The notes under the pieces: generated by a model
What the model saw: only the letters and a program-made list of their open reading frames with translations
Told to the model about the DNA's origin: nothing
The model's database searches: none
Translations under genes and position numbers: made by a program
Shown: one piece after another, positions 48 through 46,154 of the stretch
Position numbering within the stretch: the stretch's first letter is position 1
Layout of the letters: every line of letters begins with the position of its first letter
Sequence record: ON210138.1
Direction: 5' to 3' (one strand)
Length of the DNA: 64,000 bases
Source: Escherichia phage EC106

Positions 48-232
48 TACCTGCACGATTCTAAAATGATTTTTCTTGCCCGACCTGAGCGGGGTCTGCA
101 CGTTTTGAAAATGAAAAAGCTCTTTGGAGATTATCTGCACAGTTTGAAAATGAATTTTCTCTTTGGAGTTCAAAATTCTCTCTACAGATTTCTCTACAGA
201 ACTCTACCTGCACAATTCTGAAATGAAAAAGC
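48..232. repeat. array of four direct repeats, core CTGCAC-N2-TTYTRAAATGA, in ORF-poor left end
   Basis: copies at 51-69, 96-114, 135-153, 208-226; two copies followed by TCTTTGGAG; CTCTACAG duplicated at 182-200; G-rich tract at 1-37. Confidence 0.55.
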
Positions 233-299
233 CATCCTTACCTGAAAAATTTACCAGATAAGAAAGGCTTAGGCTATTGTGAATATCCTACAGAGTTTC

Positions 300-1085
300 T
301 TAGTTCTTTGCGTCTAAGAAGGTTACTTCCGGTGAAGAGAAAATTTCCTCAACATCCTCATCAGTTCTTGCATAGATATATGTATCTGCATCACTGCCAA
401 ATGTTACTGCAATCCTGTGATTGCTCTTCGACAGGTGGGTAACTAGAGCGTTACTTAGAGACATCTTTTCAACCGGAGGGTTACTTTGATGTATCTTACC
501 TTTTCTTCGTCTGAAGAGGGTAACTGCGTTATCTGTGAACACAACTACACCTGCAAAGTGTTCTGGTTCACAGTAGTTCTTCCAACCTGAGAGTAACTTG
601 TGGTACATCTCTCCTTCATAGACATATAGATAAACATCTACACTCTTCATCACCTGATTGATGATAACTGTGACGGCTTGAGGGTCAAGTCCACCGATAC
701 CTGCACCAATCATAGGTAAACCAACTTTCTTCAACTGATTGACTTCACAGTATCTGTTAAGCTGTTTCAAAGATGACTCTAAAGCACTGTATCGGGCATC
801 TTTACCAGTCTTAAGCTGAGTGTAAAGGTTAGCTATACGGCCTTGTTTTAAACGTGCTACAGAGAAATTGCCTAGTAAATTTTCACATGGTTTGTGGCCT
901 ATACCACCTGCATACAGATAGACTTCTGTATCGGTCTCATATGCTTTTGGGTAAAGTTTAGAAATCTTGTCAGCAATACCTGCACCCATTAAGTTCATAC
1001 AGTTACAACCGTGACCAATAATATCAAACTTACCCTTATCAAATGCGGAGAAGATATCCCCATTGATGATTTTTACAATACCCAT
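300..1085 (-). CDS. macro-domain (ADP-ribose binding/processing) protein with uncharacterised C-terminal extension
   Basis: N-terminal INGDIF, DIIGHGCNC, MGAGIA and later GLPMIGAGIGG motifs match macro-domain glycine-rich loops; C-terminal ~100 aa unassigned. Confidence 0.6.
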   Translation of the reverse strand: MGIVKIINGDIFSAFDKGKFDIIGHGCNCMNLMGAGIADKISKLYPKAYETDTEVYLYAGGIGHKPCENLLGNFSVARLKQGRIANLYTQLKTGKDARYSALESSLKQLNRYCEVNQLKKVGLPMIGAGIGGLDPQAVTVIINQVMKSVDVYLYVYEGEMYHKLLSGWKNYCEPEHFAGVVVFTDNAVTLFRRRKGKIHQSNPPVEKMSLSNALVTHLSKSNHRIAVTFGSDADTYIYARTDEDVEEIFSSPEVTFLDAKN

Positions 1086-1322
1086 TTAGCATCTCTCCCA
1101 AGATTCTTTATCTTCTGAAGGTTTTACACGTTGTCCTTCGTGGTCTACCCAGATACATCCACAACCTTCACAGATTACTGGCATTGCATAGCCAGCTTTA
1201 AAGTCATCTTCAGTGATAAGACCTTTTAAGTCACCTGTATCACGTCCGAACATTTCGATAGCACAATCTTTGCAGAAGTCAGCCATGAATAATTGCCTCT
1301 TGGATGATGATGCCTTTACCAC
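1086..1322 (-). CDS. hypothetical Cys-rich small protein (putative zinc binding)
   Basis: ORF with CKDC and CEGCGC motifs, co-oriented in operon. Confidence 0.35.
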   Translation of the reverse strand: MVKASSSKRQLFMADFCKDCAIEMFGRDTGDLKGLITEDDFKAGYAMPVICEGCGCIWVDHEGQRVKPSEDKESWERC

Positions 1323-1512
1323 AACGGCTTTTAAAATCTTCTAATGGTTCAGAGAAGAAGTCACGGAAATGGTTACTGCACTCACGTTTTATCACCTTCT
1401 TGTAAGTTAACACATCTTCTTCTGCAAACGGGATGACTTCATGCCTCCCTTTGAATACTGCTGACCTTACAATCTTACGTGTCTTTTTATCTCTGGCTAG
1501 TATTACTTTCAT
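1279..1512 (-). CDS. hypothetical protein
   Basis: ORF in operon context only. Confidence 0.3.
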   Translation of the reverse strand: MKVILARDKKTRKIVRSAVFKGRHEVIPFAEEDVLTYKKVIKRECSNHFRDFFSEPLEDFKSRCGKGIIIQEAIIHG

Positions 1513-1813
1513 AGTTTACCTTCTCAGTTAGCTCATACAAGTCAACATGCTCAATACTATCAATGTTGATACCAATCTTTTTGAAGCGTTCTATAACTTC
1601 GTTGTCAGTCATCCATATCAGACACCAATGATTGTGGATGGATTCTTCAAGAAGGTCAACACAATCTTTAAAAGTTTTTGTATCACTTCTTGTTCCAACT
1701 ACTGCGATTGTTCCATATAGCCACTTACCATTGCCATAAGACACTTGTGCTACGCCAACTTCTTTATCTTTCTCGTAGTAAACGGCTACAAAGTCTCTTC
1801 CATTAATCTGCAT
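1487..1813 (-). CDS. hypothetical protein
   Basis: ORF in operon context only. Confidence 0.35.
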   Translation of the reverse strand: MQINGRDFVAVYYEKDKEVGVAQVSYGNGKWLYGTIAVVGTRSDTKTFKDCVDLLEESIHNHWCLIWMTDNEVIERFKKIGINIDSIEHVDLYELTEKVNYESNTSQR

Positions 1814-1815
1814 AG

Positions 1816-2085
1816 TTACTTCCTCGTTTTGAGAACTGCTAAGATTTCTTTAGAGTCTGGTAAGAACCATGTGTAGTGATTCTCTTTGATTTCTGGATGA
1901 GTGTCAACCTTTATTTTGCACTCTTTACCAACATGCTTAAGCTGTGCTGTGACACCTTGCATAAAGATATGACACATCACATTATCCATAATGGTTGGTA
2001 AGAAATCAATTCGCATATAAGTTTCTTTTGGTCGTGGCAACAGTAAGTAACCTTCTACATAGAAAGTATCTTGATTCTCTGTCAT
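1816..2085 (-). CDS. hypothetical protein
   Basis: ORF in operon context only. Confidence 0.35.
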   Translation of the reverse strand: MTENQDTFYVEGYLLLPRPKETYMRIDFLPTIMDNVMCHIFMQGVTAQLKHVGKECKIKVDTHPEIKENHYTWFLPDSKEILAVLKTRK

Positions 2086-2351
2086 TGCTGCTTATTCCCT
2101 AATAAAATCATGTCAATAAGGTTATTAGCTTTGATTGTGCACTGGTAAAAGCCGTCACGATAGAACTCAAGGGCTGCTGCTACATCACTGCCTGTATTGC
2201 CTTTGATGATGTACCGTGATTCTTCTTGAGTGTACTTATCACTCTCACTTACTTGGGAGTTTTTGAATGTACTGCTCACTTTGTTCGTTGAACACCCTGA
2301 CATAGTTATCAGTAACACAAACATTATAAAACTCTGGCTTAGTTTTTTCAT
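2082..2351 (-). CDS. putative o-spanin (Rz1-like outer-membrane lipoprotein)
   Basis: signal peptide plus lipobox-like LITMSGC; gene start embedded out of frame in the 3' end of the upstream TM-protein gene. Confidence 0.5.
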   Translation of the reverse strand: MKKLSQSFIMFVLLITMSGCSTNKVSSTFKNSQVSESDKYTQEESRYIIKGNTGSDVAAALEFYRDGFYQCTIKANNLIDMILLGNKQQ

Positions 2352-2592
2352 ATGTTAGTACCTCTTTTGTATGCTTATTCTTAGCAAGCACATCTTTCAA
2401 ATCATTTTTGTAATTGGTGCTCAGTGTGACTAATCCTTCCTGATAAGCATCTTTAGCAACACTTATGAGCTTTTGATTATTTAGCTCAGTTTCAGCAACT
2501 TGATAGTCTCTGTAAGAGTATCCTCCCCAGACACCTGCCCCAACTAAGAAAACAATTATGAAAGTGGCTTGACAGAACTCTTTAAATGTCAT
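2245..2592 (-). CDS. putative i-spanin (Rz-like)
   Basis: N-terminal transmembrane helix then soluble domain; overlaps downstream lipoprotein ORF in another frame. Confidence 0.5.
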   Translation of the reverse strand: MTFKEFCQATFIIVFLVGAGVWGGYSYRDYQVAETELNNQKLISVAKDAYQEGLVTLSTNYKNDLKDVLAKNKHTKEVLTYEKTKPEFYNVCVTDNYVRVFNEQSEQYIQKLPSK

Positions 2593-2611
2593 TTAACAAT
2601 CTCCTAAAATG

Positions 2612-2632
2612 AAAAAGGCTCCCGAAGGAGCC
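2612..2632 (-). terminator. rho-independent terminator (GGCUCC-UUCG-GGAGCC + U5)
   Basis: perfect 6-bp stem, UUCG tetraloop on minus strand, followed by U-run. Confidence 0.75.
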
Positions 2633-2638
2633 TGTATA

Positions 2639-3451
2639 TTACTCTTGACTGTAATAGTTGACAAGTGAAATTGCTTGATTCATCAACAGCTTATCAGCCT
2701 GTGCTCCGCGACCAGCTTGTAATGCTAGTTGGTATACCTCTGTAACATATTTGTTAGACATACCTTCACAGTAATCGTTATAATCCTCCCAAAAGGAGAA
2801 TGCAGCATCACCATATAGGCGTAATGTGATTAGCATTGCTGCACGGATACCAGAAGAGTACTTGCGTTTTGCGTTTACTACACCTTTAAGCTGTACTTCA
2901 AGAGAATCAATTTGTTCCAACTCATTCTTAAAATCATTAAGGTATTTAACTGTTTCAGTGTTAGATACCTGTTGCACACCATAGTATGCAGCAACATACT
3001 TAATGGCAGTAGCCCAAGATGCTTTCATCAATTCTGATTCTGGATTGAAAGAAATCATCTTCATATTCCCGTAATAAACCTCTGAAGGTTTCTCTCTTGC
3101 TAATTCAGAGTCAAAATGAGTATACAAATCTGTGACATCCAATATAGAGTTCACATGGTATATAACTGCAATCAGGTTATCTGGTCGTGTCAGGTTACCA
3201 ACCTTCCATGCCTCTCGACGTGAGTGTCCATCAATAATAAACAGTGAACTGCCAAACTTAGCTACATGGACTACTGTTTGGTCTGGTGACACATCACCAT
3301 TAAGGTGCTTACTCTTCAGACGTTTCAGTGTATTTCTCTGACGAGGATTTTCTTTGTAGCGTTTCTCGTTAAGGAAATCCTCAACACTGATAATCTTAGT
3401 GTGCATTTTAACAACTTTACCGTTCAGTGCTACATTGATGCTATTTGACAT
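2639..3451 (-). CDS. ParB/Srx-like domain protein (paralog of 6418-7257)
   Basis: IDGHSRREAW motif resembling the DGHxR core of ParB-like nuclease/CTPase folds; clear similarity to 6418-7257. Confidence 0.45.
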   Translation of the reverse strand: MSNSINVALNGKVVKMHTKIISVEDFLNEKRYKENPRQRNTLKRLKSKHLNGDVSPDQTVVHVAKFGSSLFIIDGHSRREAWKVGNLTRPDNLIAVIYHVNSILDVTDLYTHFDSELAREKPSEVYYGNMKMISFNPESELMKASWATAIKYVAAYYGVQQVSNTETVKYLNDFKNELEQIDSLEVQLKGVVNAKRKYSSGIRAAMLITLRLYGDAAFSFWEDYNDYCEGMSNKYVTEVYQLALQAGRGAQADKLLMNQAISLVNYYSQE

Positions 3452-9458: not shown

Positions 9459-11825
9459 TTAATCGTAAATTGTAGTCCCTTCTGGAACACACTTCACATC
9501 AAAGCCCAAGAACTTACTCACTTCGATGGGTGACACTTTATTCCAATCTAAATGAGAAAGCAAGAAGTTTTCTTGTTTTCTTTTTGAGAAGTAGTTTGTC
9601 ACCTTAATAAACATACGGTCACCAGCTTTCTTAATTTTCTTGTAAAGCTTTGTATCCTTATCAAGACACCTTTTCAAATCTTGCAACACACTAATAGTGT
9701 AAGTGTATGCAAATTGTGCAGCAACGTATTGGATTTTACCGAACATTGCCTCAACAGCATCTTCATTACCTTCTAGGAAGATAGTTTTGTTTGTGTCCCG
9801 TGAATAGCAATAACCATCAGAAATCTTCCTGTTATTGAACGTAAAGTTTCTGGTAATAATCCAACAGCTTGTAAGGTTAAGGACACCACGCATACAGATA
9901 CGTGTCATATACCTGTTATGATTAATCCAATGAACATCAGTTAAGCTGTCGTTCAAGAGCTTCTCATCTACTTCAATCCAGTCTTCTGGTATCTTTTTCC
10001 AATTTGCTTTTCGGAAAACATAGACTGTCTTCCCTATAACATTAGCAACTGACTTAGCTACATCTTCTGGAGATGAGCAAAAACATTCGCCATCAACTGT
10101 GTCACCAACTGCCTTGATGTAAAGCTGAGGTTCTTCAATTGTGTCTAAGTCTTCTGACACCTCTGTGTATGAGGCTACACCTTCTGCTGGAACAGCTTTC
10201 CAGAGTTTTACAACACCCCTTACAGCTTCTTTGTGCTGATAGTGATGTTCCTTATCAGACATTTTCACAATCTTTAACAAGCTTTTATCAAGTTTGTGTA
10301 GGTTGATTAAGTCATCTAGCTCTTTTTCAGTCGAGAATACAAACACAATACCATTATATCTGTGAAACAGACTTGACTCACTGGCGTAATCTCGACATGC
10401 ACCACGCAGAATCTGATTGCGGCCTACAGTCTTCTCAGTACCGTTTTTATTGCGACGGTCGTTTATAACAAACAAAAACTGTTCAATTTGACTTTTACGC
10501 ATTGCGCCAAAGATATTGAACATACTTGCCTCTTGAGTGTAGGAAAGTGATGTTGCACGAATCTTACTCTCTAAAGAGTTGAACTTGACATAAGCAACTG
10601 GATTGTATAGGTAGTCCACTTTAGGAATGTTGTTTCCTTTACTGTCAACCTTAATATTACCTTTGCCGTCACGTTCATAGATGACTGAGCCGTCTTCTGC
10701 GTAGATAATTCCACGACGAATGTTTAACAATTCTTCTTCCAGAGAATCAAGCTTAATGCCTCCCCACTCTAGCTTTGGACACACAACATTAAACATCTCT
10801 CGTGAGTTCAAACGTAACTCAGCATAAGCCTGTGCAGCATCCATGAGTGTAGGTTGGCTGTTAACTTTCTTGATAACATCCTTTGTAATGGCTTCAGTTA
10901 TCTTTTTAGTAGCCTCAATGATAACATTTTTTGTCGTGTCATTCATCTGCAATGCTTCACGAGAAGCTGCAATAGCCACTGAACCAATAGGCATGTAGAT
11001 GTTTACAAGGTCTATGCTCCTACGGAAAAACTCTGGCAAGACTTTGAAGAAATCATCACCAAGTAATGCTTCCATGTTCACTGGGTAGGCAATATTACCC
11101 ATCACCACATTAAACTCTGTCCTGTTACCACTAGAACGCCAGCTTTGCTTATGAATCATGGCATCATAAACACCTTCTTCACGGGCAATGACATTCATAT
11201 CTGCTAACACATCGTCATACTCGATATTACTTTCTGGTTTTACAGCAAAGTATGAGTATACATTACCAGCCTCTTCAAAGAACTTTGAAATACGGTGGTC
11301 AGCAACTGCCACACGTACAGCTAAACCATTAGGTTCTTTTGTTGGGTTAGTGGTCAGCTTAGTTACTTGAGGGATACCATTCTCAAGATAAACAGAGTAC
11401 TTATTAACAACACCATCAACATAGCTAGACACTGTGAATGACTGAGCAATTGCAAATGGGGATTTTGAGCCGATACCCATTGCACCAATGTAATCATTAG
11501 AGTCATTCTTCGTAGAAGCCCCGTAGTTTAGGTACAAACTCATAACTTTATCATGAGTCAATCCAGTTCCAAAATCACGGACTTCAAAGTAAGGCTCAAA
11601 TCGAGTAGGTAAATGTACATGGAACGGGATGTTCTCTTTTCCAGCTTCTTTCTGAGCATCTACTGCATTACATGACAGTTCACGAATCACTGCCCTTTCT
11701 TTAAATGTGTATACACCAGAACTCAGAAGGCTGAACATTTCAGGTGTCATTGTAATCTGTGCTTGAGATGTCTCCAAAGAAGTTGAACTCTTAATCACTT
11801 CTGCGTGGTCATTTACCATGCGCAT
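9459..11825 (-). CDS. rIIA: rIIA-like protein (N-terminal GHKL-type ATPase fold)
   Basis: AVIRELSCNAVDA, RDFGTGL, NDYIGAMGIGSKSPF match the T4 rIIA N-terminal region; 788 aa. Confidence 0.85.
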   Translation of the reverse strand: MRMVNDHAEVIKSSTSLETSQAQITMTPEMFSLLSSGVYTFKERAVIRELSCNAVDAQKEAGKENIPFHVHLPTRFEPYFEVRDFGTGLTHDKVMSLYLNYGASTKNDSNDYIGAMGIGSKSPFAIAQSFTVSSYVDGVVNKYSVYLENGIPQVTKLTTNPTKEPNGLAVRVAVADHRISKFFEEAGNVYSYFAVKPESNIEYDDVLADMNVIAREEGVYDAMIHKQSWRSSGNRTEFNVVMGNIAYPVNMEALLGDDFFKVLPEFFRRSIDLVNIYMPIGSVAIAASREALQMNDTTKNVIIEATKKITEAITKDVIKKVNSQPTLMDAAQAYAELRLNSREMFNVVCPKLEWGGIKLDSLEEELLNIRRGIIYAEDGSVIYERDGKGNIKVDSKGNNIPKVDYLYNPVAYVKFNSLESKIRATSLSYTQEASMFNIFGAMRKSQIEQFLFVINDRRNKNGTEKTVGRNQILRGACRDYASESSLFHRYNGIVFVFSTEKELDDLINLHKLDKSLLKIVKMSDKEHHYQHKEAVRGVVKLWKAVPAEGVASYTEVSEDLDTIEEPQLYIKAVGDTVDGECFCSSPEDVAKSVANVIGKTVYVFRKANWKKIPEDWIEVDEKLLNDSLTDVHWINHNRYMTRICMRGVLNLTSCWIITRNFTFNNRKISDGYCYSRDTNKTIFLEGNEDAVEAMFGKIQYVAAQFAYTYTISVLQDLKRCLDKDTKLYKKIKKAGDRMFIKVTNYFSKRKQENFLLSHLDWNKVSPIEVSKFLGFDVKCVPEGTTIYD

Positions 11826-33435: not shown

Positions 33436-35619
33436 ATGGAAAACGTAGATTTTAAAAACTTACATTTGGTTGGTGATACAGAAACTGATGGTTTACTCCT
33501 TGAGTTCACTAAAGTGCACGTAATGGCCTTTGCAGACTATAAATCTGACGATGAAGAGCCACCTGTATGGGTCTTTACAGATGAGCCTATCCTCGGTCAC
33601 AAGTACACCAAGTACATTAAGGGTGGTTTACGTGAAGGTGTTGAGTTTGCGTTAAAGGCAAAACGACTTTGCATCCATAACGGTCTTGGTTATGACTGGT
33701 GGGTTTTTAATCACATTGCACCTGATTTATGGAACTTTGATAATCCAAAGTGTAAGCCGTGGAGTAATTTCTTTCAGGATTCTCTTATCCAGTCTCGTGT
33801 TCAGTGGATGGATAGACCAACTCCAAAGGGTTATAAAGGTGCTCATGGCTTGGCTGCATGGGGTGCTCGTGTTGGTGTTCGTAAGCCAGAGATTGAGCAT
33901 TGGGGTGTGTGGAATGCAGAAATCTTCACTCGTGTTGTAGAAGATATTCGTATTAACGCCAAAACTAAACGGGCACTTGATAACGAGTATCTCAAGCTTA
34001 AGAAGTGTGGTATAGACACTTATGAAACCTACATGCGAGCTAAAGAAACATCTTTCTGGATGAGTCAACAGGCTATCAATGGTTGGAAAGCTGATAAAGA
34101 ACTTATGGAGTTCCATGTAAAGGAACTTGACAAGTTGACTAATGAGCTTGCTTCAGAGGTTGAACCACATCTACCTCCAACTATTAAGACCAAAGGTAAA
34201 GTCACTGGAGAAGAGTTTGCGAAAGCTTGGAATGAGTATGTTGAAACATTTGGTCATGCAGATGGACTGAAGAGAATTACCAAGTACCCTAAGACAAAGT
34301 ATCGTCAGCAGGTACGTAATGGTGAGATGCAGACATACGAAATCAAACCATTTGGTAAGCCAACTACAAAGATTTTTAACATTGGAAAGAGAAATTGCTA
34401 TACACCAACTAACTCCGTAACTGGTGAAGAGTACAAGGAAGGCTTTGTAGCAATGAAGGATGCTCGTGCAATTTGCAATGAGTTGAACGCAAAGATTGGT
34501 AAGAAATGCAAAGACTGGAAGCCAGTAAAAACAGTCAAAACTGTGAAGTACTATAACAGCCACGTTGTTAACCACTTTGAACTTGAGTCAAGTCGCTACA
34601 CAGGTTTGATTGATGCACCATATACACCAATTGAGTTTGAAGTTTCTCGTATGACTCAGGTAGCAGTTGTTAAAGATTACTTGAAATCAGTTGGTTGGAT
34701 TCCAGATGACTGGAATTACAAGAAAGACTCAGATGGTCGCCCTGTCAAAGTTTGTCGTTTCAAAGACAATAAAAAGATGATTACAAAGCATCCTAAGTGG
34801 CAGGAAATGGTTGAGCGGTGTGGTTTGAGCTATGTTGAGCATGAAGGTGTACAGTACATTGAGCATAACTGGTCTGTGAAGAAGTACACAGATTTGCTTG
34901 AGCCTTGTTTAATCCGTACTTCACCAAAACTTACTGAATCATCTTACGATACGATTGAAGGTGAACTTGGACAGAAGATTGCGAAGTACTATACTTTGAT
35001 GCACCGACGCAGAACTATTGAGAACTCAAAGGACGACGAAAAAGGCTGGTTGAACCAGATTCGTCCAGATGGTCGCCTTAGTGCTGGTGCAATGGTGTTT
35101 GGTACTTCAACTGGACGTATGACGCAATATGGTATTGTAAACGTACCGTCTGGTGCTGCTGTCTATGGAGCACCTATGAGGGAGGTGTGGATTTGTGAGG
35201 AAGGGACTAACGTTGTCTCTGTTGATATGAACTCAGCCCAGCTAGTTCTTCTTTGTAACTTTATGGGTGATAAAGAGTCCACTAAAGCGGTAACACAAGG
35301 TAAAGAAGAGGTTGAGTTCATTCGTCAAGAAGATGGACGCTATTACTGCAAACACTTTGATGAGTACCTCAACCCAGAGATTGATAAGTACCTTCGCTAT
35401 GACTCTGAGAATGACCTGTACGTTGTCTATTCAGGGACTGATGCACATACACTGAACAGTATCTACTTTAGCTTGAACGATGAGCAGGATATCTTGACTT
35501 GTCGAGCTACTCAGGATGAGAATCTTCTTCATGAGATTAGCAAAGGTCGTAAGAAAGCTAAGAATGGTATCTATGCGTCAGTGGCGCATGTAAAACGTTG
35601 TGAATTGCTGGAAGCCTAA
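33436..35619 (+). CDS. family A DNA polymerase, N-terminal part (exon 1); ORF-track start 33406, likely start 33436 after SD
   Basis: 3'-5' exonuclease motif HLVGDTETDG, motif A VDMNSAQLVLL, motif B RKKAKNGIY near the end. Confidence 0.85.
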   Translation: MENVDFKNLHLVGDTETDGLLLEFTKVHVMAFADYKSDDEEPPVWVFTDEPILGHKYTKYIKGGLREGVEFALKAKRLCIHNGLGYDWWVFNHIAPDLWNFDNPKCKPWSNFFQDSLIQSRVQWMDRPTPKGYKGAHGLAAWGARVGVRKPEIEHWGVWNAEIFTRVVEDIRINAKTKRALDNEYLKLKKCGIDTYETYMRAKETSFWMSQQAINGWKADKELMEFHVKELDKLTNELASEVEPHLPPTIKTKGKVTGEEFAKAWNEYVETFGHADGLKRITKYPKTKYRQQVRNGEMQTYEIKPFGKPTTKIFNIGKRNCYTPTNSVTGEEYKEGFVAMKDARAICNELNAKIGKKCKDWKPVKTVKTVKYYNSHVVNHFELESSRYTGLIDAPYTPIEFEVSRMTQVAVVKDYLKSVGWIPDDWNYKKDSDGRPVKVCRFKDNKKMITKHPKWQEMVERCGLSYVEHEGVQYIEHNWSVKKYTDLLEPCLIRTSPKLTESSYDTIEGELGQKIAKYYTLMHRRRTIENSKDDEKGWLNQIRPDGRLSAGAMVFGTSTGRMTQYGIVNVPSGAAVYGAPMREVWICEEGTNVVSVDMNSAQLVLLCNFMGDKESTKAVTQGKEEVEFIRQEDGRYYCKHFDEYLNPEIDKYLRYDSENDLYVVYSGTDAHTLNSIYFSLNDEQDILTCRATQDENLLHEISKGRKKAKNGIYASVAHVKRCELLEA

Positions 35620-35891
35620 GTCTGTAAAGATATGGTAATCAGCAGCGAAGTCTCTGTTAGGACTCCTAAAGCAAATAACATAACTATAGAGATTCCTAAC
35701 AGAGAAACGTTCAGAGACTATCGAAAAGCATACTTAATGTATGAACTGAGTAGAGTAGGGTGGTAAGCTAATGACCATTCCCAAGTGCAACGGTAGTATT
35801 ACTACTACGTGATATAGTCCGACACTCCGTAGAAATGCGGAGAAGTTCATAAGAGAACTGGTACACCTTGCGAGTGTATTGACCAGATGTA
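35575..35891 (+). other. putative ORF-less group I intron (or split-gene junction) in DNA polymerase gene; boundaries approximate
   Basis: polymerase motif B ends exon 1 and GAGDEK continuation starts 35892; about 270-310 nt of structured non-coding sequence between. Confidence 0.5.
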
Positions 35892-36446
35892 TTGTTCGGT
35901 GCAGGTGATGAGAAGTTTGCTAAGACGATTAAAGCTGCAACTACTCAGGAAGGTGCGCTGACTAAACAGACTTACTTTATACGTTTGCCTAAAATTAAGA
36001 AGCTGTTAGATGACTTGGAAGCTGACTACAAAGCAACTAAAAAGGCACTTGAAGAGGTGTTTGGTAAGACTGCTGCAATCTCTAAAGGGGGTTTTGTAAA
36101 GGTTGCTGGAGCTTGGTTGTGGTGTAAATCTCCACATAAGTTATTGAATTATTTGCTCATGGGTTCGGAAAGTCAGATTCAGAACGAGGCAATTAACCTT
36201 GCTTGCCGTCGTATGATTGACGAAGGTTTGATGAAGTTGAACGGTCGTAAACCAGCCATAGGTGCTCGTTTATTGTGCTCCTATCACGACGAGACAAGTT
36301 GGGAATGTCCAGAAAGTATGACGGCAGAGGTGAAGGCTGTCACTGATTGGTATTACGGACAAGCCTCTAAGAACTTAGGGCTAAAGAGTGAAACACTGGT
36401 AACTGGTACTGGTAAGGTTGGTAAAAGCTGGTATGAGGTACATTGA
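35892..36446 (+). CDS. family A DNA polymerase, C-terminal part (exon 2)
   Basis: LFGAGDEKFAKTI continues motif B; motif C SYHDE; C-terminal ...YEVH. Confidence 0.85.
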   Translation: MFGAGDEKFAKTIKAATTQEGALTKQTYFIRLPKIKKLLDDLEADYKATKKALEEVFGKTAAISKGGFVKVAGAWLWCKSPHKLLNYLLMGSESQIQNEAINLACRRMIDEGLMKLNGRKPAIGARLLCSYHDETSWECPESMTAEVKAVTDWYYGQASKNLGLKSETLVTGTGKVGKSWYEVH

Positions 36447-36958
36447 TGCGAGATTGTGGATTCACACATGAACAGTTAAAGTCTTGGTTAAACTATGACC
36501 CCGAAACAGGGGTCTTAACGTGGATTGGCAGACCTCCACATAGTAGTAGGGTGGTTATTGGGAGCCAAGCCGGAGCAATCAAGCGCACAAGGTCTGGTGT
36601 GTATATGCACACACAGATTTTAGGATACAGGACAGGCAATCACCGAATTGCTTGGTTCTGGATGACAGGTAAGTGGCCTGATAAACACATTGACCATAAA
36701 GATGGAGATGGTTTGAATAACGCTTGGGACAATCTAAGAGAGGCCACAAAAGAGCAGAACATGTCCAATAGGAGACAACCTAGAACATCAAAAAACTTAA
36801 AAGGTACAAGTAGAAGCAAGTCTGGTAAGTGGATAGCCCAGATTAACCATAATGGCAAGACTATACATATAGGGACATACACAACAGAAGAAGAAGCCCA
36901 TAAAGCTTACTGTGAAGCTGCTATTAAACTCCACGGAGAGTTTGCAAAACTAAGTTGA
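36443..36958 (+). CDS. HNH homing endonuclease with AP2-type DNA-binding domain
   Basis: HIDHKDGDGLNNAWDNL HNH motif; C-terminal GKWIAQI...YTTEEEAHKAY AP2-like; start overlaps polymerase stop. Confidence 0.75.
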   Translation: MMRDCGFTHEQLKSWLNYDPETGVLTWIGRPPHSSRVVIGSQAGAIKRTRSGVYMHTQILGYRTGNHRIAWFWMTGKWPDKHIDHKDGDGLNNAWDNLREATKEQNMSNRRQPRTSKNLKGTSRSKSGKWIAQINHNGKTIHIGTYTTEEEAHKAYCEAAIKLHGEFAKLS

Positions 36959-37853: not shown

Positions 37854-38060
37854 ATGCAAGTTTTAGTAAACTATATCTACCGTTACGATGTTATTCATTC
37901 TACTACAACGGTATCTCAACGTAATCCAATTGTACCAAGAGAAGGTGAGTGGGTTCGTATTGAAGGTTGGACTTACACTGTAGAGAACATCATTCACAAG
38001 TTTGATGTGGCTGGTGATGTTCAGGTTATTGCTGTAGAAATTGGTGGTAAGAGAAAATGA
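37854..38060 (+). CDS. hypothetical protein
   Basis: co-oriented small ORF. Confidence 0.35.
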   Translation: MQVLVNYIYRYDVIHSTTTVSQRNPIVPREGEWVRIEGWTYTVENIIHKFDVAGDVQVIAVEIGGKRK

Positions 38061-38242
38061 AAACAGAACCTGTAAGAACTGAAGACGGAAACATTGAGAC
38101 GTTCATAATCACAGTAGCTGGTGGTGAGTTCTCTTGCAAATGTGGGTGTAATTGCTTTCATAAACCTGACAACACAAAATTAGGTTTATATGAATGTAAT
38201 AGCTGCGGTGCAAGATTCTTAGATAAGAGCAAGGAGATGTGA
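38057..38242 (+). CDS. small zinc-ribbon protein
   Basis: CKCGCNC...CNSCG motifs. Confidence 0.35.
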   Translation: MKTEPVRTEDGNIETFIITVAGGEFSCKCGCNCFHKPDNTKLGLYECNSCGARFLDKSKEM

Positions 38243-39342
38243 TGACAATTCTGTACAAACAAAATAAAGACGGTTCCTTCAACATCTGGTCATGCGGTGC
38301 TATAGGTAACAAAGTTATTACAACCTATGGTAAAGAAAACGGAAAGATGATGTTTGAAGAGTATACAGCAGAACCTAAAAACATCGGTAAAAAGAATGAG
38401 CGTAATGCTGAACAGCAAGCTCTCTTTGAAGTTGCTGCTAAGTATAAAAAGCAAGTTGACCGCAAAGGTTATGCTTACACAAAAGAGTCTGCACAGAATA
38501 CTGAGAAGGTAGGTGTACAGCTTGCTCATGATGCTGCAAAGGTTAGTCATGCAAAGTATCTGAAATTTCCTGCTGATGCTCAACCGAAACTGGATGGTGT
38601 TCGTTGTAGAATTTCAAGAGATGATGATTCAGTTAGTTTCACAGCCTATTCTCGTGAGAATACTGTTTACAACGTTCCAACAGAACTAATCCCAGATTTG
38701 CTTTTGTTGCTTAAATTACATCCACAAGTTGAAGACTTTGATGGAGAGATTTATGCTCATGGTTGGGACTTAGAAGATATTGTATCTATGATTAAGAATG
38801 CTGACAATCCAGACCGTCACCTTCTTAAGTTCTACTGGTATGATATCTGCGACAATTCAAAAACTTGGCCTGAGCGTCGTGAAGTTATTGATAACTCACC
38901 CATTGTTGAGCTTGGTGATACCTGTAGAGTGGTTCCTGTACAGACTATCCGTGTAAATTCTTGGGAAGAGTTTGATGAAGCCCATGATAAGTGGGTTGAA
39001 GCTAAGTTTGAAGGTGCAATGTACCGTTCAATCTCTGAAGACTCCTTCTACGAGTGTTGTCACCGTTCATACTTCTTGATTAAGCACAAGAAGATGCACA
39101 CTGAAGAGTTTAAAGTGACTGGTGTAAAGACCGATAAGCGTGGTCATGGTAAGTTCGTTGTAGAGACTCTTCCTAACGTCTTTGTAGATGTCTCATGGAA
39201 GACTACACACGAGAAGAAACAGTATCTTGCTGAACATCCTGAAGAGTTTATCGGGAAGCCTTTAACGGTTCAGTTCCAGAAGATGACTCGTAAGGGTTCT
39301 TTACAGTTCCCTGTTGGGCTAGTTATTAGGGATTACGAATAA
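38239..39342 (+). CDS. ATP-dependent DNA ligase
   Basis: adenylation motif I PKLDGVRCRI; 367 aa. Confidence 0.85.
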   Translation: MMTILYKQNKDGSFNIWSCGAIGNKVITTYGKENGKMMFEEYTAEPKNIGKKNERNAEQQALFEVAAKYKKQVDRKGYAYTKESAQNTEKVGVQLAHDAAKVSHAKYLKFPADAQPKLDGVRCRISRDDDSVSFTAYSRENTVYNVPTELIPDLLLLLKLHPQVEDFDGEIYAHGWDLEDIVSMIKNADNPDRHLLKFYWYDICDNSKTWPERREVIDNSPIVELGDTCRVVPVQTIRVNSWEEFDEAHDKWVEAKFEGAMYRSISEDSFYECCHRSYFLIKHKKMHTEEFKVTGVKTDKRGHGKFVVETLPNVFVDVSWKTTHEKKQYLAEHPEEFIGKPLTVQFQKMTRKGSLQFPVGLVIRDYE

Positions 39343-39349
39343 AAAGTTG

Positions 39350-39378
39350 TTGACATAGAAAATTTGGTGAGTATGCTG
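39350..39378 (+). promoter_or_regulatory. putative sigma70-like promoter (TTGACA-16-TATGCT)
   Basis: perfect -35 at 39350-39355; followed by nested palindrome GGTGAGTA...TACTCACC 39366-39405. Confidence 0.4.
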
Positions 39379-39551
39379 AGCAGCATAAACCAACGGGTAC
39401 TCACCAGCATCACTTAAGAGTCTTCTAAGAGGGTTTTAAGTAATGTATTACACGGTAAGGTGATGTGAAGTCTGGTCTGGCATGGTGTAGTCTGGTATGG
39501 AAGGGTGGCAGTAGCCTTATAAAAAATCTGCCAAATAAGCTATAAAATCTG

Positions 39552-39580
39552 TTGACAAGTCAGGTGTTATAGCTTATTTT
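39552..39580 (+). promoter_or_regulatory. putative sigma70-like promoter (TTGACA-17-TATTTT) flanked by 9-bp inverted repeat
   Basis: -35 at 39552-39557; inverted repeat AAGCTATAA / TTATAGCTT brackets the -35. Confidence 0.4.
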
Positions 39581-39624
39581 TATACTCAATGTAATACAAA
39601 ATTTAATATAACTTTGAGGTCATT

Positions 39625-40008
39625 ATGAAAAAGATTTTATTAGCTGCTGCAATGGTTATGGCAATGAATTTACCAGTCAATGCAACAGAACTTCCAAATG
39701 TGGACTTATCAGGTGTTCCAGAAGACACTTGCCAGATTGTAAAAGGTGTTGCTCTAGCTAAAGGTGAGCTACTTAAACCAATCTCTGAAGAATCTTTAAC
39801 AGAGATGACTGATAAGGTAACTGACTATCAATATCGTGTTCTTGCAGAGTATTTCCTGCAATCTGCAAACATTAAAGAGAAACACCATGATGATATTGAT
39901 GTACAGGCGATGCTCAACCACCGTATCCAGTTTAAAGAAGATTTGATGCAAAAAGCTATGTATGGTGTTGAGTATTTCTTAGAAAACAGAAGCTGCACAG
40001 GTATTTGA
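39625..40008 (+). CDS. secreted/periplasmic hypothetical protein
   Basis: N-terminal signal peptide MKKILLAAAMVMAMNLPVNA. Confidence 0.45.
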   Translation: MKKILLAAAMVMAMNLPVNATELPNVDLSGVPEDTCQIVKGVALAKGELLKPISEESLTEMTDKVTDYQYRVLAEYFLQSANIKEKHHDDIDVQAMLNHRIQFKEDLMQKAMYGVEYFLENRSCTGI

Positions 40009-40009
40009 T

Positions 40010-40222
40010 ATGGCTCTTAAAAAGTTACATCCCAGAAGCGGTTATGGTAAGATAATTGATGATACAGACGGCTTTACAGTCTTTACAGTTATCTGTCAAG
40101 ATGATTCACAGATTGAAAAGGCTCTTGATGATTATCTTAATGATGAACGTGAAAAGGTTAGGGCTACAAACATAGATTCATTGATTGACACTTCACGCAA
40201 ACGGAAGAAGAAAGATGAATGA
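40010..40222 (+). CDS. hypothetical protein
   Basis: co-oriented small ORF. Confidence 0.35.
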   Translation: MALKKLHPRSGYGKIIDDTDGFTVFTVICQDDSQIEKALDDYLNDEREKVRATNIDSLIDTSRKRKKKDE

Positions 40223-40514
40223 GGTTTTTGACCCTTATGCCCCACAAGATGATTGGGAGGCTGATAGAGAGGCTGAAATGGAGAGTTATATTTGTCCAAT
40301 GGATGTAGACGAAATGAGAGACTTCGTTGCACATCGTTTTAAGAGAGAGATTAAATCCAGAGGTCTTTCTCAAGAGCAAGTCGCTAAAATTTGTGGTATC
40401 TCTCAAGCTCGTGTATCCAACATAATCCACCTCACTGGGAATGTCTCTCTTGAGTATATGTTGGAAGTATGTGAAAAATTTGGTGTTAATTTTAATTTAA
40501 GGTTGGCAGACTAA
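40185..40514 (+). CDS. helix-turn-helix DNA-binding protein (XRE-like)
   Basis: LSQEQVAKICGISQARVSNI HTH. Confidence 0.45.
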   Translation: MTLHANGRRKMNEVFDPYAPQDDWEADREAEMESYICPMDVDEMRDFVAHRFKREIKSRGLSQEQVAKICGISQARVSNIIHLTGNVSLEYMLEVCEKFGVNFNLRLAD

Positions 40515-40515
40515 T

Positions 40516-40875
40516 ATGAAACGTGAAAACATTATCCACTCTGAAAATTTCGCATTAGGCTTTTATGGTGTACCTACTCACCTTGAAAAGTATTATGGTG
40601 TAAAGATTCTTTCCAATCTCATTATGGCTTACAAAGATGGTAAGATTAAGCATACTGAGAAGAAACGTGTCATGGGCTACATGGCTGTAGGTTCAGCAAT
40701 CTCAAACATCAAGCTGGAAACCACTAGTAGCCAGATTGTGAAAGACCACTTCATCAAAGAGCTTTACCAGAATCTTGATGGTGTAGATGTTCAGGCTGTT
40801 TGGTTGGATGTTGATGGTCACAACTACACAAGTTTTGTTTTCAAAAACGATGACATTAAGTGTCTGTTCCCATAA
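40516..40875 (+). CDS. hypothetical protein
   Basis: co-oriented ORF. Confidence 0.35.
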   Translation: MKRENIIHSENFALGFYGVPTHLEKYYGVKILSNLIMAYKDGKIKHTEKKRVMGYMAVGSAISNIKLETTSSQIVKDHFIKELYQNLDGVDVQAVWLDVDGHNYTSFVFKNDDIKCLFP

Positions 40876-40888
40876 TAGGTGATTAACT

Positions 40889-41404
40889 ATGATTGATGTC
40901 TACTTACAAGATGCTCATGCAGATTTCCTTAAAGAGATGCTTAAAAAGTTTATGGCTTCGCAGTATGAGAATGAAGCATCTTTTAAAATAGTTACATGTG
41001 GCGATGAAGCTGGTTTTGTTGAGATTGAGCATGAAGGTACTGGAAAGACTGTTTGTAAGCTACCTGATAGTATGTTCTCTAGCACATTCTTAACAAAGAC
41101 TAGTATAAATGTTAAGCTTGTGCCTCAGATTGAAACATACTCTGGTACAGATTATCCTAAAGGTTTTAAGTCACTGATGAAGTACTTCTTAGATGACTTT
41201 GTGAGTAATCTTCTGAGGGAGGTAAAAGAAAGTCGTACAGTGTTGACTGTAGAGAACATGGGAGGGACTATCAGGGTTACTTCTGACTATTTTGTTATGA
41301 GCCTCTTCGACTTCGTTCCTAAGAACTTTGATGGTATTCTGGATGAAGAAGATGACTGTGTAGACTTTATATTGGTTCTTGAGCCAGTTTTTGAGGTTAA
41401 GTAA
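40889..41404 (+). CDS. hypothetical protein
   Basis: co-oriented ORF. Confidence 0.4.
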   Translation: MIDVYLQDAHADFLKEMLKKFMASQYENEASFKIVTCGDEAGFVEIEHEGTGKTVCKLPDSMFSSTFLTKTSINVKLVPQIETYSGTDYPKGFKSLMKYFLDDFVSNLLREVKESRTVLTVENMGGTIRVTSDYFVMSLFDFVPKNFDGILDEEDDCVDFILVLEPVFEVK

Positions 41405-43796: not shown

Positions 43797-46154
43797 TTAA
43801 GCAGTTCTTACCCAAGCCATTAACTTGTAGAACTGGTTAGTAACACTAAATGCTGAACCAGAACCTGTACCACCAGTGTCACCACTAACCGTATGACTGT
43901 GAGCACCAATACCTACAGAGTGGGAATGGTCGCCAGCACCGCTAGTCCAAAAAGAGAAAGAATGACTGTGGTTCCCTGACGCATAAGTTTCATGACCACC
44001 AGACCTATATGCTACTGCATATGATGATGTTCTATTACCACCTACACCAGTACCGTTCCACGCCTCAATGTAGTGGGTGTGCTCACCATTTGTGCTAGTA
44101 GAACCACTACCATAGTGAGAATGACCACCAGTACTGTTAGTTCCCTTCGTACCATAATCAAAAGATGAAGTGGTAGCAGAGAAACTATGAGTGTGTGAAG
44201 GTAAATTACCAACAGCTAACGCCACAGAATCTGAACCACCAGTTGTAGCAACATCTGAACCATTTGCTGCTGCAATTCTAATAGTTCTGCCAACACCATT
44301 GTTCAGGTACGTCCAAGTTAGACCAGGAAGTGCTGTATTAGGGTCAACATTACTGTTAAACCACGTTACAATACCTACTGGATAGATTTTGTTAAGGTCT
44401 GTAGAGTCACTAATTGCCTGTGCAATCTTCTGGTCAGTTTCAGCTTTAGTATATGCGCCGATATCTGAAGGGGTTGGTTTAAAATCAGTTGTATAAAACT
44501 GTGCTTCTCCAGCGTATTCACCCTTGTCATCATAGGCATAGGTGAATGCTGCTAAGCCCAATGAGCCGTACAAAAAAGAGATGCCCCTTGAATGTGCAGC
44601 AGTCTTACTAGAGTGCGCAACATGAATTGCTAAATCTCTTAAGCCGTCAGTAACACCATTATTTCTGACAAAACCTGAGTACCCAATATTAAATGCTGAA
44701 TGGTCTTCAAGGTTATTTACAGTTACAGTCATTAAGGATTGGTCTAATAGCTTAGTCTTAACAAAATATCTATTATCTAAGTTAGCCCAATCTTGTGGTT
44801 GAACCTGCCCATTAATATACAGGTTCTTATTCATACTAACCAATGTTGGCTCTAGGGAAATTTGAGTGCCTGAAAAGCTGTTGCTCAAGGTTACCACGTT
44901 AGAATTAGCAGTTCCTACGCCCAGCCACCACCTAGATACATTCGCAGTATCAACACCACGGATATATTGTGGCTGTCCCTGTGTTAAGCTCCTTAATACC
45001 AAACCCTCGTTGTCAGACACAATAGTTTGCACATTTGTGAAAGTATTAGATACATTAAGTTTAGCAAGATTACTCAAAGTAGCTGCCGGAATGTATCTAG
45101 AGTCAATGTTAGTCCAATCAGAAGGTTGAACTTGACCAGTGATTCTTACATTCTTATTAAATGCTACGCCAGACGAGTTTAAGATAATAGAGGTATTGCC
45201 CTTGTAATCGTAAAATGTGATATCAGAGCTTGTATCACCTTTACCAATAAACCATAAATTATTGTACTCGCTATCTTTTGCTAGGATGAATAACTCCTCA
45301 CCTACATCTTTATTCTGTAACATGATAGCAGCTTTATTAACTTTTACGGAAATAGGTTTACCGAATGTATTTTCACCGCTAAAAGCATTATTAGCAGCTA
45401 ACTGTGCAAATCTCTGATTAGCTGCTGTCTGAGTAAAATATCTAGCATCTAAGTTAGAGAAGTCAGACGGCTGAACTTGACCAGTGATTGATAAAGACCT
45501 ATTAAAAGAAGCAACCGTGCCTAGAGTGAGGATGGAACCTTGTTTACTCTCGATTTGAACATCAAGATTACCCCTAATCAGGTTCCCAATAGCCCAAGTT
45601 TTTTCATTACTTGCGTCCCTACCTACAATAGCAGAGTATGCGCTATCCCCACTCACAGGAGATTTTAATGTTAACTGTTCCCCATTTGCGATGATAGTCT
45701 GTTTAGAATTGAATGAGTTTGTAACAGCAAGCCTTGCATACCTTGCATCATTCTCTTCATTAGCTCTCATCCCAAGTTCATTAGGGCTTGGTTTATTCAG
45801 AGTATGATAAACAGTTGCCGACCTTGAAGCATCTGCAATAGTTAGTTTAAGGCCATTTGCGTTGATTTTAAAAGTCTTTAAAACATCCCCAATAGTAATC
45901 TCAGAAGAGCCTGTTGGGTCAAAGACTGCCTTACCACCATAAAGTAACTTAACAATTCCTAAGTCACCCGTCATAGTGCTGCCAGCAATCTGAACAAATC
46001 TTTCTAGTTTAAAAGATGCTAAGAAGTCTTGATAGGTCATTCGACGGTCTTCATCACCCAGCATTTCAGGTCTCTTTTTAACTCTGACATGAAGAAGGTC
46101 ATCTGAACGGATTGTATCGATTGAGTTTAATTCACTCAACTTGTAATCTGCCAT
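43797..46154 (-). CDS. tail fibre protein with His-x-His repeat tip
   Basis: 785 aa; three [13 protein letters not shown] repeats; C-terminal HTHS/HSHS repeats ending ...WVRTA. Confidence 0.75.

Follow-up and report, generated by a model that had tools for sequence, protein, structure and literature searches.

A predicted solo vrRNA gene in Felix O1-like phages, with a guide matching the vipr effector gene of their relatives

Between the gene for an ATP-dependent DNA ligase and the homolog of Felix O1 gp87, Escherichia phage EC106 (ON210138.1) has a gap of 282 nucleotides (nt), located at positions 39343-39624 of the 64,000-nt stretch analyzed here (hereafter, the window, with the strand given taken as +). 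No credible gene is annotated inside this gap in any record examined, and the gap has no + strand open reading frame (ORF) of at least 30 amino acids (aa). What, then, does it encode? Judging from the sequence, it is predicted to be a solo ("orphan") vrRNA gene of the SUSP1-clade VIPR (Viral Interference Programmable Repeat) system, with a guide that specifies vipr, the effector gene of that system. The window belongs to a Felixounavirus (Felix O1-like myovirus, Ounavirinae), and the 482 nt spanning the gap share 99% identity with phage phiWec172, the closest relative, and 97.7% with Felix O1, with 275 phage records matching this 482-nt query. No second copy of the region was found elsewhere in the window; the curated Rfam models yielded nothing at the gathering score and, at E ≤ 10, a chance-level match to a plastid 3′ untranslated region alone; and a tRNA scan of the region found nothing. 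The whole 282 nt folds better than shuffled sequences on both strands (z = -2.8 on the + strand and -3.7 on the - strand).

In many relatives, the ligase-gp87 gap is much longer and holds two genes of 588 and 441 bp (PHROG 4652 and 5926, function unknown there) between repeated modules, and this two-gene cassette, flanked by the same modules, is present in SUSP1, dune, Moogle, and others. The module of the relatives consists of three parts, namely, a hairpin, a tract of 45-80 nt with GGT every 5 nt and two variable spacer bases, and a second hairpin whose loop is conserved. Just one such module is present in the window, with a putative promoter on either side (P1 and P2, described below). An Rfam scan of the dune locus at E ≤ 1 returned nothing. 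A scan of IMG/VR for (GGTNN)x6+GGT, a pattern of 21 specified bases with a chance expectation far below 1, retrieved at least 120 contigs, many with arrays of tracts with variable spacers (microsatellites of the simple form (GGTTA)n, (GGTCT)n, or (GGTCG)n fit the pattern as well and need filtering out), and a Vipr homolog lies beside the tracts in at least 30 of the 118 loci fetched by DNA pattern alone. The 195-aa protein of dune is 97.9% identical to that of SUSP1 and has H17, E71, M72, R138, C173, D177, W178, and R179 at the same numbers as the Vipr contact residues identified by cryo-electron microscopy (10.64898/2026.04.26.720927).

VIPR was described in 2026 as a system of non-contiguous RNA-guided DNA recognition and was proposed to predate CRISPR. 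It comprises a RAMP-like protein, Vipr (~20 kDa), an accessory protein, Vap, and vrRNAs of ~100 nt, each with 9-16 YNNGG repeats followed by an invariable ~40-nt 3′ tail; there is one Vipr protomer per GGY, the NN dinucleotides read double-stranded DNA with every third base skipped, and the bound complex blocks transcription (10.64898/2026.04.26.720920; hereafter, the VIPR preprint). The representative locus is that of phage SUSP1, for which small-RNA sequencing detected ~100-nt vrRNAs that copurify with Vipr (10.64898/2026.04.26.720920), and the tail of the SUSP1-clade vrRNAs is a 3′ pseudoknot (10.64898/2026.04.26.720920; 10.64898/2026.04.26.720927). A natural target is taken here as one with at least 80% NN match under this 1-nt-skip rule. 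The skip falls predominantly at the codon wobble position, and no self-targeting was found; internal degeneracy of the units is frequent, and the search threshold was at least four consecutive perfect units (10.64898/2026.04.26.720920).

The single unit of the window has the following parts, all on the + strand:

39408-39445 (+), 5′ flanking hairpin, denoted H_A (CATCACTTAAGAG...TTTTAAGTAATG; -11.4 kcal/mol, z = -3.6)
39444-39493 (+), predicted vrRNA guide of ten 5-nt units: TGTAT TACAC GGTAA GGTGA TGTGA AGTCT GGTCT GGCAT GGTGT AGTCT
39494-39533 (+), junction GGTAT and 3′ tail, a predicted H-type pseudoknot with both stems intact: S1, AAGG 39501-39504 with CCTT 39515-39518; S2, TGGCAG 39506-39511 with CTGCCA 39528-39533

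The 5-nt register is strict and unbroken from 39444 to 39504, and the ten variable units together with the conserved GGTAT (39494-39498) amount to 10-11 units, inside the published range of 9-16; the NN code of the guide is AT AC AA GA GA CT CT AT GT CT. GGY is kept in 7 of the 11 units, compared with fractions of 0.33-0.92 in vipr-carrying loci and 0.55-0.82 in the SUSP1 vrRNAs, which are functional according to the VIPR preprint. H_A precedes every vrRNA of the SUSP1 clade, with its 3′ arm extending into the first guide units, and in dune, humlepung, Moogle, and SUSP1, every repeat tract is preceded either by H_A or by the variant CCTTTTTAAAAGG...CTTTTAATGAGG; the G:U pairs of H_A favor a + strand RNA. 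The repeat tract itself is no more structured than shuffled sequences (z = +0.7), as expected for a guide. The stem of the 3′ element exists in four versions, each still complementary, and a second helix joins the loop to the 5′ flank, which gives the H-type pseudoknot. In an alignment of 14 distinct tails of 4 types, 89% of the cells are paired, compared with 25-45% with a slid partner, and 9 of the 12 pairs are changed on both sides, figures to be read with the qualification that the pseudoknot model was derived from the same tail sequences, from four lineages, that test the pairing. All the features listed in a preliminary description of the window are found at the positions given there. 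That description had suggested a small structured RNA at this site, which was essentially right, considering the homology to the SUSP1 vrRNA genes and the covariation in the 3′ pseudoknot; the short GTCTGG-type repeats that it mentioned as a minor detail are real (a 20-nt direct repeat spans 39465-39504) and appear to be the key feature of the region, namely, its programmable guide.

Neither protein of the system was detected in the window. In tblastn searches, the best E value for Vipr was 3.4 in the window and 0.37 in the complete genome of phiWec172, and those for Vap were 1.0 and 0.8, respectively; a hidden Markov model of Vipr built from 19 diverse homologs found nothing better than E = 1 in either sequence, compared with 2.6e-55 for the SUSP1 control. 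The window thus does not encode a complete VIPR system, which is defined by a vipr gene and an adjacent vap. Approximately 74 phage records have a Felix O1-type gap at ≥95% identity, and in those listed, the ligase-to-gp87 span is too short for the cassette in every case; vipr is found at ≥90% identity in 118 Ounavirinae records, of ~258 with a gp87 homolog. About half of the relatives have a VIPR system at this locus, with vipr, vap, and 2-6 vrRNAs.

What this guide specifies can be read directly under the published 1-nt-skip rule, taking each GGY as one wildcard base and the NN dinucleotides in order. The guide matches codons 157-166 of vipr (ATC ACC AAA GAG GAA CTT CTG ATG GTT CTG, encoding ITKEELLMVL) at 20/20 positions in dune, AYO145A, and other relatives, with the skipped base being the wobble position. 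Alleles of vipr that differ at wobble positions only are still matched at 20/20, and the remaining alleles at 17-19/20. Because the guide is built of 5-nt units and the target of 3-nt codons, the match is not a leftover fragment of vipr. When compared against all IMG/VR contigs, the exact 20-base gapped pattern gave 4 matches, all within vipr of Felixounavirus contigs; an 18-base control pattern, with the junction AT as the ninth dinucleotide, gave 1 match in IMG/VR and 42 non-enterobacterial matches in GTDB representative genomes. No self-target was found in the window at up to 3 mismatches. As a check of the scanner, two SUSP1-clade vrRNAs (from SUSP1 and one IMG/VR relative) were placed at 18/18 in recombinase genes of the E. 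coli 90-3040 island. Most natural targets of the SUSP1 clade fall on a satellite phage (10.64898/2026.04.26.720920).

Does the match to vipr recur in other phages that lack the effector? Solo guides of five families correspond to five sites in vipr, with positions given for the dune locus (L009) as the reference:

Felix O1 and window guide, 20/20, vipr codons 157-166, sense
EC6-like guide, 18/18, vipr codons 14-22, antisense
JH2 guide, 18/20, vipr codons 2-11, antisense
ULIM9 guide, 20/22, vipr codons 120-130, sense, with the skip on codon position 1
FSL SP-010, HMD-P8, and L017 guide, 15/18, vipr codons 34-42, sense

In a uniform test, in which the nine units before the junction were compared with 15 unique vipr-vap cassettes on both strands, the 40 unique guides from vipr-carrying loci scored 11-14 of 18, and the 10 unique guides from solo vipr-less loci scored 15-18 of 18. 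The ULIM9 guide aligns with L009 2555-2586 over 10 consecutive dinucleotides and reads codon positions 2-3, unlike the predominant wobble skip. Some vipr-less Felixounavirus loci (L007, L013, L019, L020, L023, and L032) have two well-formed vrRNAs, with GGY integrity of up to 0.9 and no vipr or vap match; neither their guides nor those of Tf and SP2 have a target in the small database compared. Short "hypothetical protein" coding sequences are annotated over the vrRNA guide or tail in ULIM9 (L321 402-509), P219, LinBro, and pSJ21, each of which is probably a misannotated noncoding RNA gene.

The effector gene varies where two of the guides read it. Among the 15 unique vipr alleles, 13 sites are polymorphic at codon position 1 or 2, and 8 of the 13 fall within the 38 nt that guides of the Felix O1 and EC6 types read (8/38 vs. 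5/354 elsewhere; Fisher p = 3.4e-6), with changes including Leu CTG to TTG, which the guide can see even though it is synonymous, and a change of Lys AAA to AGA or CGA. Six variants of the window guide carry 6-7 substitutions, all in GGY slots and none in NN (p of about 0.03-0.05).

The flanking elements and the neighboring genes are as follows:

38239-39342, ATP-dependent DNA ligase gene (Pfam DNA_ligase_A_M), upstream of the gap
39342-39377 (+), putative promoter P1: A-tract, -35 TTGACA 39350-39355, 16-nt spacer, -10 TATGCT 39372-39377
39365-39406 (+), inverted repeat overlapping P1: outer arms TGGTGAGTA 39365-39373 and TACTCACCA 39398-39406; -15.6 kcal/mol, z = -2.5
39372-39387, inner palindrome: arms TATGCTG 39372-39378 and CAGCATA 39381-39387
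39533-39584 (+), AU-rich hairpin enclosing P2: arms 39533-39551 and 39561-39579, then UUUUUAUA
39552-39580 (+), putative promoter P2: -35 TTGACA 39552-39557, 17-nt spacer, -10 TATTTT 39575-39580
39625-40008, Felix O1 gp87 homolog, downstream of the gap
40185-40514, HTH_3 regulator in the gp87-homolog operon (HTH_3 match, E = 6e-10)

The two perfect TTGACA hexamers that had been pointed out are present, and such motifs occur at chance level: there are 75 TTGACA in the window (69 ± 8 expected), 9 promoter-like sites in 38000-41000 (8.0 expected), and a chance-level count of TGTTGACA in the window, so that the case for real promoters rests on conservation and context rather than on the hexamers. 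P1, with its -10 TATGCT, agrees with the consensus at 10/12, with a predicted start near 39384; all Felixounavirus, Suspvirus, and Moogle loci retain it, mostly with TATACT as the -10, and where relatives have the vrRNA1-vipr-vap operon, P1 stands at its head. The extended P1 motif, AGTTGTTGACAT-N15-TATRCT, also occurs upstream of genes in many unrelated phage contigs. P2, with its -10 TATTTT, likewise agrees with the consensus at 10/12, is annotated as "promoter" in phage AYO145A, and would serve the gp87-homolog operon (39625 onward), including the HTH_3 regulator. Both are plausible promoters of the conserved sigma-70 type, as had been proposed, but the qualification "regulated middle/late" is without support, P1 and P2 being host-type consensus promoters within the ligase, dihydrofolate reductase (DHFR), and thymidylate synthase gene block.

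The nested palindrome reported at P1 exists, and its outer stem is conserved in relatives, but the inner palindrome, which had been stressed, is not. It is perfect only with the -10 TATGCT (the window, Felix O1, and L013), and the TATACT of most relatives creates an A:C mismatch; the inner palindrome is thus a side effect of how the -10 reads here. The outer 9-bp stem is invariant in Felixounavirus, and in the Mooglevirus members Michonne (CCTGACGGG/CCCGTCAGG) and ESh22 (TAGTGGG/CCCACTA), a stem at the same place is kept through compensatory changes, although both lack any vrRNA; three double compensatory changes and one G:U pair distinguish Michonne (L036 2383-2428) from ESh22 (L037 ~2377-2418). 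Stems that change by compensation speak against sequence-specific protein binding, and with it against an operator for the downstream HTH_3 regulator. Because the left arm lies in the P1 spacer, upstream of the start, this hairpin can form only in ligase read-through RNA or in DNA. Around the second -35, the 9-bp inverted repeat that had been noted (AAGCTATAA/TTATAGCTT) is the core of a longer, 19-nt inverted repeat with 89% complementarity (-17.8 kcal/mol, z = -4.6), and this AU-rich hairpin, also conserved, is found behind the last vrRNA of every locus, whether or not vipr is present. It looks like a vrRNA terminator, and was missed by a terminator scan because it has too few G-C pairs.

What could a guide without an effector do? 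We lean, with modest confidence, toward the view that the orphan RNA is a trans-acting guide directed against VIPR. P1 would drive transcription of ~200 nt, comprising the 5′ hairpin, the ten pentamer units, and the 3′ pseudoknot tail and ending at the AU-rich hairpin that carries P2, and the transcript would be trimmed to a ~100-nt vrRNA, by analogy with SUSP1. Because this phage supplies no Vipr, the RNA would be inert in a single infection. Upon coinfection by a VIPR-carrying relative, the orphan RNA would load the Vipr of the rival and direct it onto the vipr-vap-vrRNA operon of that rival, and it would also soak up Vipr protomers in competition with the rival's own vrRNAs, the result being an RNA-only anti-VIPR device. 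Quite possibly, although we would stop short of calling it probable, such guides are part of an ongoing arms race inside a single phage family: after shedding VIPR, Felix O1-type phages would keep one guide hijacking the rival's Vipr against its own operon, rivals would escape at the positions read (the Leu and Lys codon changes described above), and new guides would answer, giving the five families and five sites. Several points weigh against a trans-acting role. Repression of vipr needs the Vipr of the rival, so the guide would only damp the rival's system rather than abolish it, and the benefit for a vipr-less phage is unclear, the known vrRNAs of the clade being directed at the satellite and not at Felix O1-like phages. 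Of the ten guide units, 4-5 lack a full GGY (TGT, TAC, TGT, AGT, and AGT), and perturbed GGY motifs abolish silencing (10.64898/2026.04.26.720920). A regular-expression search for at least four consecutive GGYNN units, the threshold of the VIPR preprint, found none in the window or in phiWec172, the longest perfect run being three (GGTCT GGCAT GGTGT); of the published hallmarks of a vrRNA, the window thus has pentamer units in range, a pseudoknot tail, and a target above 80% NN match without a self-target and lacks the run of four. H_A contains a mismatch in each solo variant, which could mean decay, and in the uniform test, no anti-vipr match above background was seen for Tf, for SP2, or for the vipr-less loci with two vrRNAs. 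The polymorphism and substitution tests are suggestive only, because the sequences are few and related, and a literature search for transcriptomes of Felixounavirus, including Felix O1, returned nothing usable.

Some of these points would be expected if the unit were instead an inert scar, the main alternative, which we regard as rather unlikely. An ancestor would have carried a guide against its own vipr, the silenced cassette would have become dispensable, and inter-module recombination would have removed vipr, vap, and the other vrRNAs, leaving a relic vrRNA. Indeed, the window joins the 5′ context of a first vrRNA (P1 and the hairpin) to the tail type of a last vrRNA, as an inter-module deletion would leave it, and both the degenerate GGY units and the mismatched 5′ hairpins of solo variants fit this account. 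In Salmonella phage SP2 (SHa-2019, L326), the -35 of P1 is mutated to TTAACA, and an extra unit relative to the SP-010 type breaks the register, with a score of 13/18, that is, background; this locus looks like a decaying orphan, suggesting that some orphans decay. The flanking genes are equally conserved (about 96-98%), so conservation alone proves nothing. What the scar does not readily accommodate is that guides of five families against five vipr sites occur in solo loci, compared with 0/40 in vipr-carrying loci and no self-targeting in the VIPR preprint: a random survivor out of 2-6 vrRNAs is unlikely to be an anti-vipr guide each time. Furthermore, the substitutions avoid NN positions, and variation among the vipr alleles falls precisely on the two guide-read sites examined, which suggests that the guides are exerting pressure or did so recently. 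Either account, the trans-acting guide or the scar, would leave room for P1 and P2 as promoters and terminator. It is improbable that the region serves transcription control only, with host-type promoters and hairpins ending or processing upstream transcripts and restarting transcription, in the manner of the PeSL elements of T4-like phages, and with functionless repeats: the conservation of P1 and P2, the terminator-like P2 hairpin, the presence of P1 and its hairpin directly before gp87 in the repeat-less Michonne and ESh22, and the modules flanking a present-or-absent cassette, as PeSLs do, all agree with such a role, which, however, leaves unexplained the 5-nt register, the covarying pseudoknot, the homology to detected vrRNAs, and the 20/20 gapped match to vipr. 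Scarcely credible is a DNA-level element, whether a packaging site or a replication origin containing iterons or forming an R-loop. Speaking for it are direct repeats that adjoin AT-rich DNA and strong promoters in a neighborhood of replication genes, a G-rich + strand, and the position of the locus at the physical midpoint of the Pr103Blw genome, which is bounded by terminal repeats; against this, the genome ends are ~44 kb away, the GC skew simply tracks gene orientation, a 5-bp period with variable NN is unlike iterons, and the VIPR assignment accounts for every feature.

As to that midpoint, the ligase-gp87 gap of Pr103Blw (L035, MW481326.1; 88,421 bp with direct terminal repeats) extends from 43,831 to 44,262 and spans position 44,210, probably by coincidence; a packaging site or genome end was rejected, the annotated 581-bp terminal repeats being ~44 kb from the locus. 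Binding of a TRAP-like ring protein, two-tetrad G-quadruplexes, an R-loop, a RecA-preferred GT-rich hotspot, a rut or anti-rut site, and multiple Shine-Dalgarno-like standby sites were also considered and are superseded by the VIPR assignment.

The vrRNA as a kind is already known from two 2026 preprints, and the window shares with the SUSP1-clade VIPR the ligase-gp87 locus, P1, the 5′ hairpin, the pentamer register, the 3′ pseudoknot, and a 1-nt-skip target with wobble skip. Unlike that system, it has no vipr, no vap, and a single vrRNA, and its guide specifies the vipr of relatives, whereas the SUSP1-clade targets in the VIPR preprint are mostly on the satellite phage. Because that clade was built by BLAST with SUSP1 Vipr, vipr-less genomes such as Felix O1 would have escaped the search, and the words "orphan" and "Felix" are absent from the text (10.64898/2026.04.26.720920). 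The concept is partly anticipated in the same source, which reports that some vrRNAs of the Pseudomonas P. fulva clade are directed at other VIPR systems and that some satellites have their own vrRNAs (10.64898/2026.04.26.720920). By comparison with both, the guide here resides in a lytic phage that belongs to the family of its target, it is the only VIPR component left, and it is aimed at the effector gene itself. What appears to be new is that lytic Felix O1-like phages carry solo guides without an effector, that these guides consistently specify the effector gene, and that vipr varies in a matching way. A likeness exists to virus-borne orphan mini-CRISPR arrays, solitary repeat units, and RNA anti-CRISPRs, in which an effector-less, guide-like RNA exploits a foreign effector in conflicts between mobile elements; these differ in protein family and RNA architecture and act through cleavage or dead complexes, compared with the non-contiguous recognition and predicted effector-gene repression here.

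The locus suggests that many phages of the Felix O1 type, among them the classical typing phage itself, have no effector and nevertheless carry a solo guide aimed at the effector gene of their VIPR-carrying siblings, and that the effector gene varies exactly where two of the guides read it. If the guides act in trans, they would constitute a protein-free anti-VIPR mechanism, a natural case of guide hijacking. The question also bears on Felix O1-type biocontrol cocktails for Salmonella and E. coli, in which VIPR-carrying and VIPR-less relatives may be mixed.

The PeSL comparison extends to the arrangement of the locus. PeSLs (promoter-early stem-loops) are composite promoter-terminator motifs that consist of a stem-loop just upstream of a sigma-70-like early promoter, followed by a Shine-Dalgarno sequence and a start codon, and are repeated through hyperplastic regions of T4-like phages (PMC4122927, PMC2839356). 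The shared traits are the intergenic combination of a stem-loop with a sigma-70-type promoter and the position flanking a present-or-absent cassette, which recombination between copies could plausibly delete. The two differ in that there is no sequence relation, the stems here overlap the promoters, and the modules encode predicted guide RNAs; P2 does combine a hairpin, a promoter, a Shine-Dalgarno sequence, and an ATG, but its stem encloses the -35, which amounts to resemblance rather than membership.

Related vrRNA-like units were observed outside the phage family. Among 5,426 E. coli genomes, vipr-vap DNA had no match, and module DNA had two weak matches, which led to the 90-3040 island mentioned above. 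This island (L320 ~9925-10115, NZ_CP027459.1, between tonB and yciI) holds a stand-alone vrRNA gene without vipr, comprising a TTGACG-17-TATAAT promoter, ~10 GGY/NN units, a SUSP1-type pseudoknot tail, and a canonical terminator; no target of its own guide was found among the sequences compared. Unrelated viral contigs (L166, L176, L173, L252, L251, L212, and others) contain arrays of 5-10 GGY/NN tracts with short conserved linkers (aaggctaatg, aaggaatggtttaatgaatttaatt), and many of these arrays adjoin distant Vipr homologs (20-40% identity).

The surrounding genes show further variation. Directly 3′ of the ligase stop codon, skuden (L002 1601-1751), Sl26, humlepung, Michonne, and Moogle have a 151-bp insert, absent from the window at 39343, that codes for a ~49-aa hydrophobic peptide (MLSTIILFALVVFVLSYITSKLLNTSFAMGVLF...). 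The skuden record leaves this insert without annotation, the Sl26 record has the annotation on the opposite strand, and the Michonne record lists a hypothetical protein. In the gene block upstream of the ligase, the window contains a group I catalytic intron at 35567-35842 (+; Rfam, 62.9 bits, E = 1.4e-13), and the adjacent ORF at 36443-36958, in which an HNH-like motif (KHIDHKDGD) was recognized by eye, may encode a homing endonuclease.

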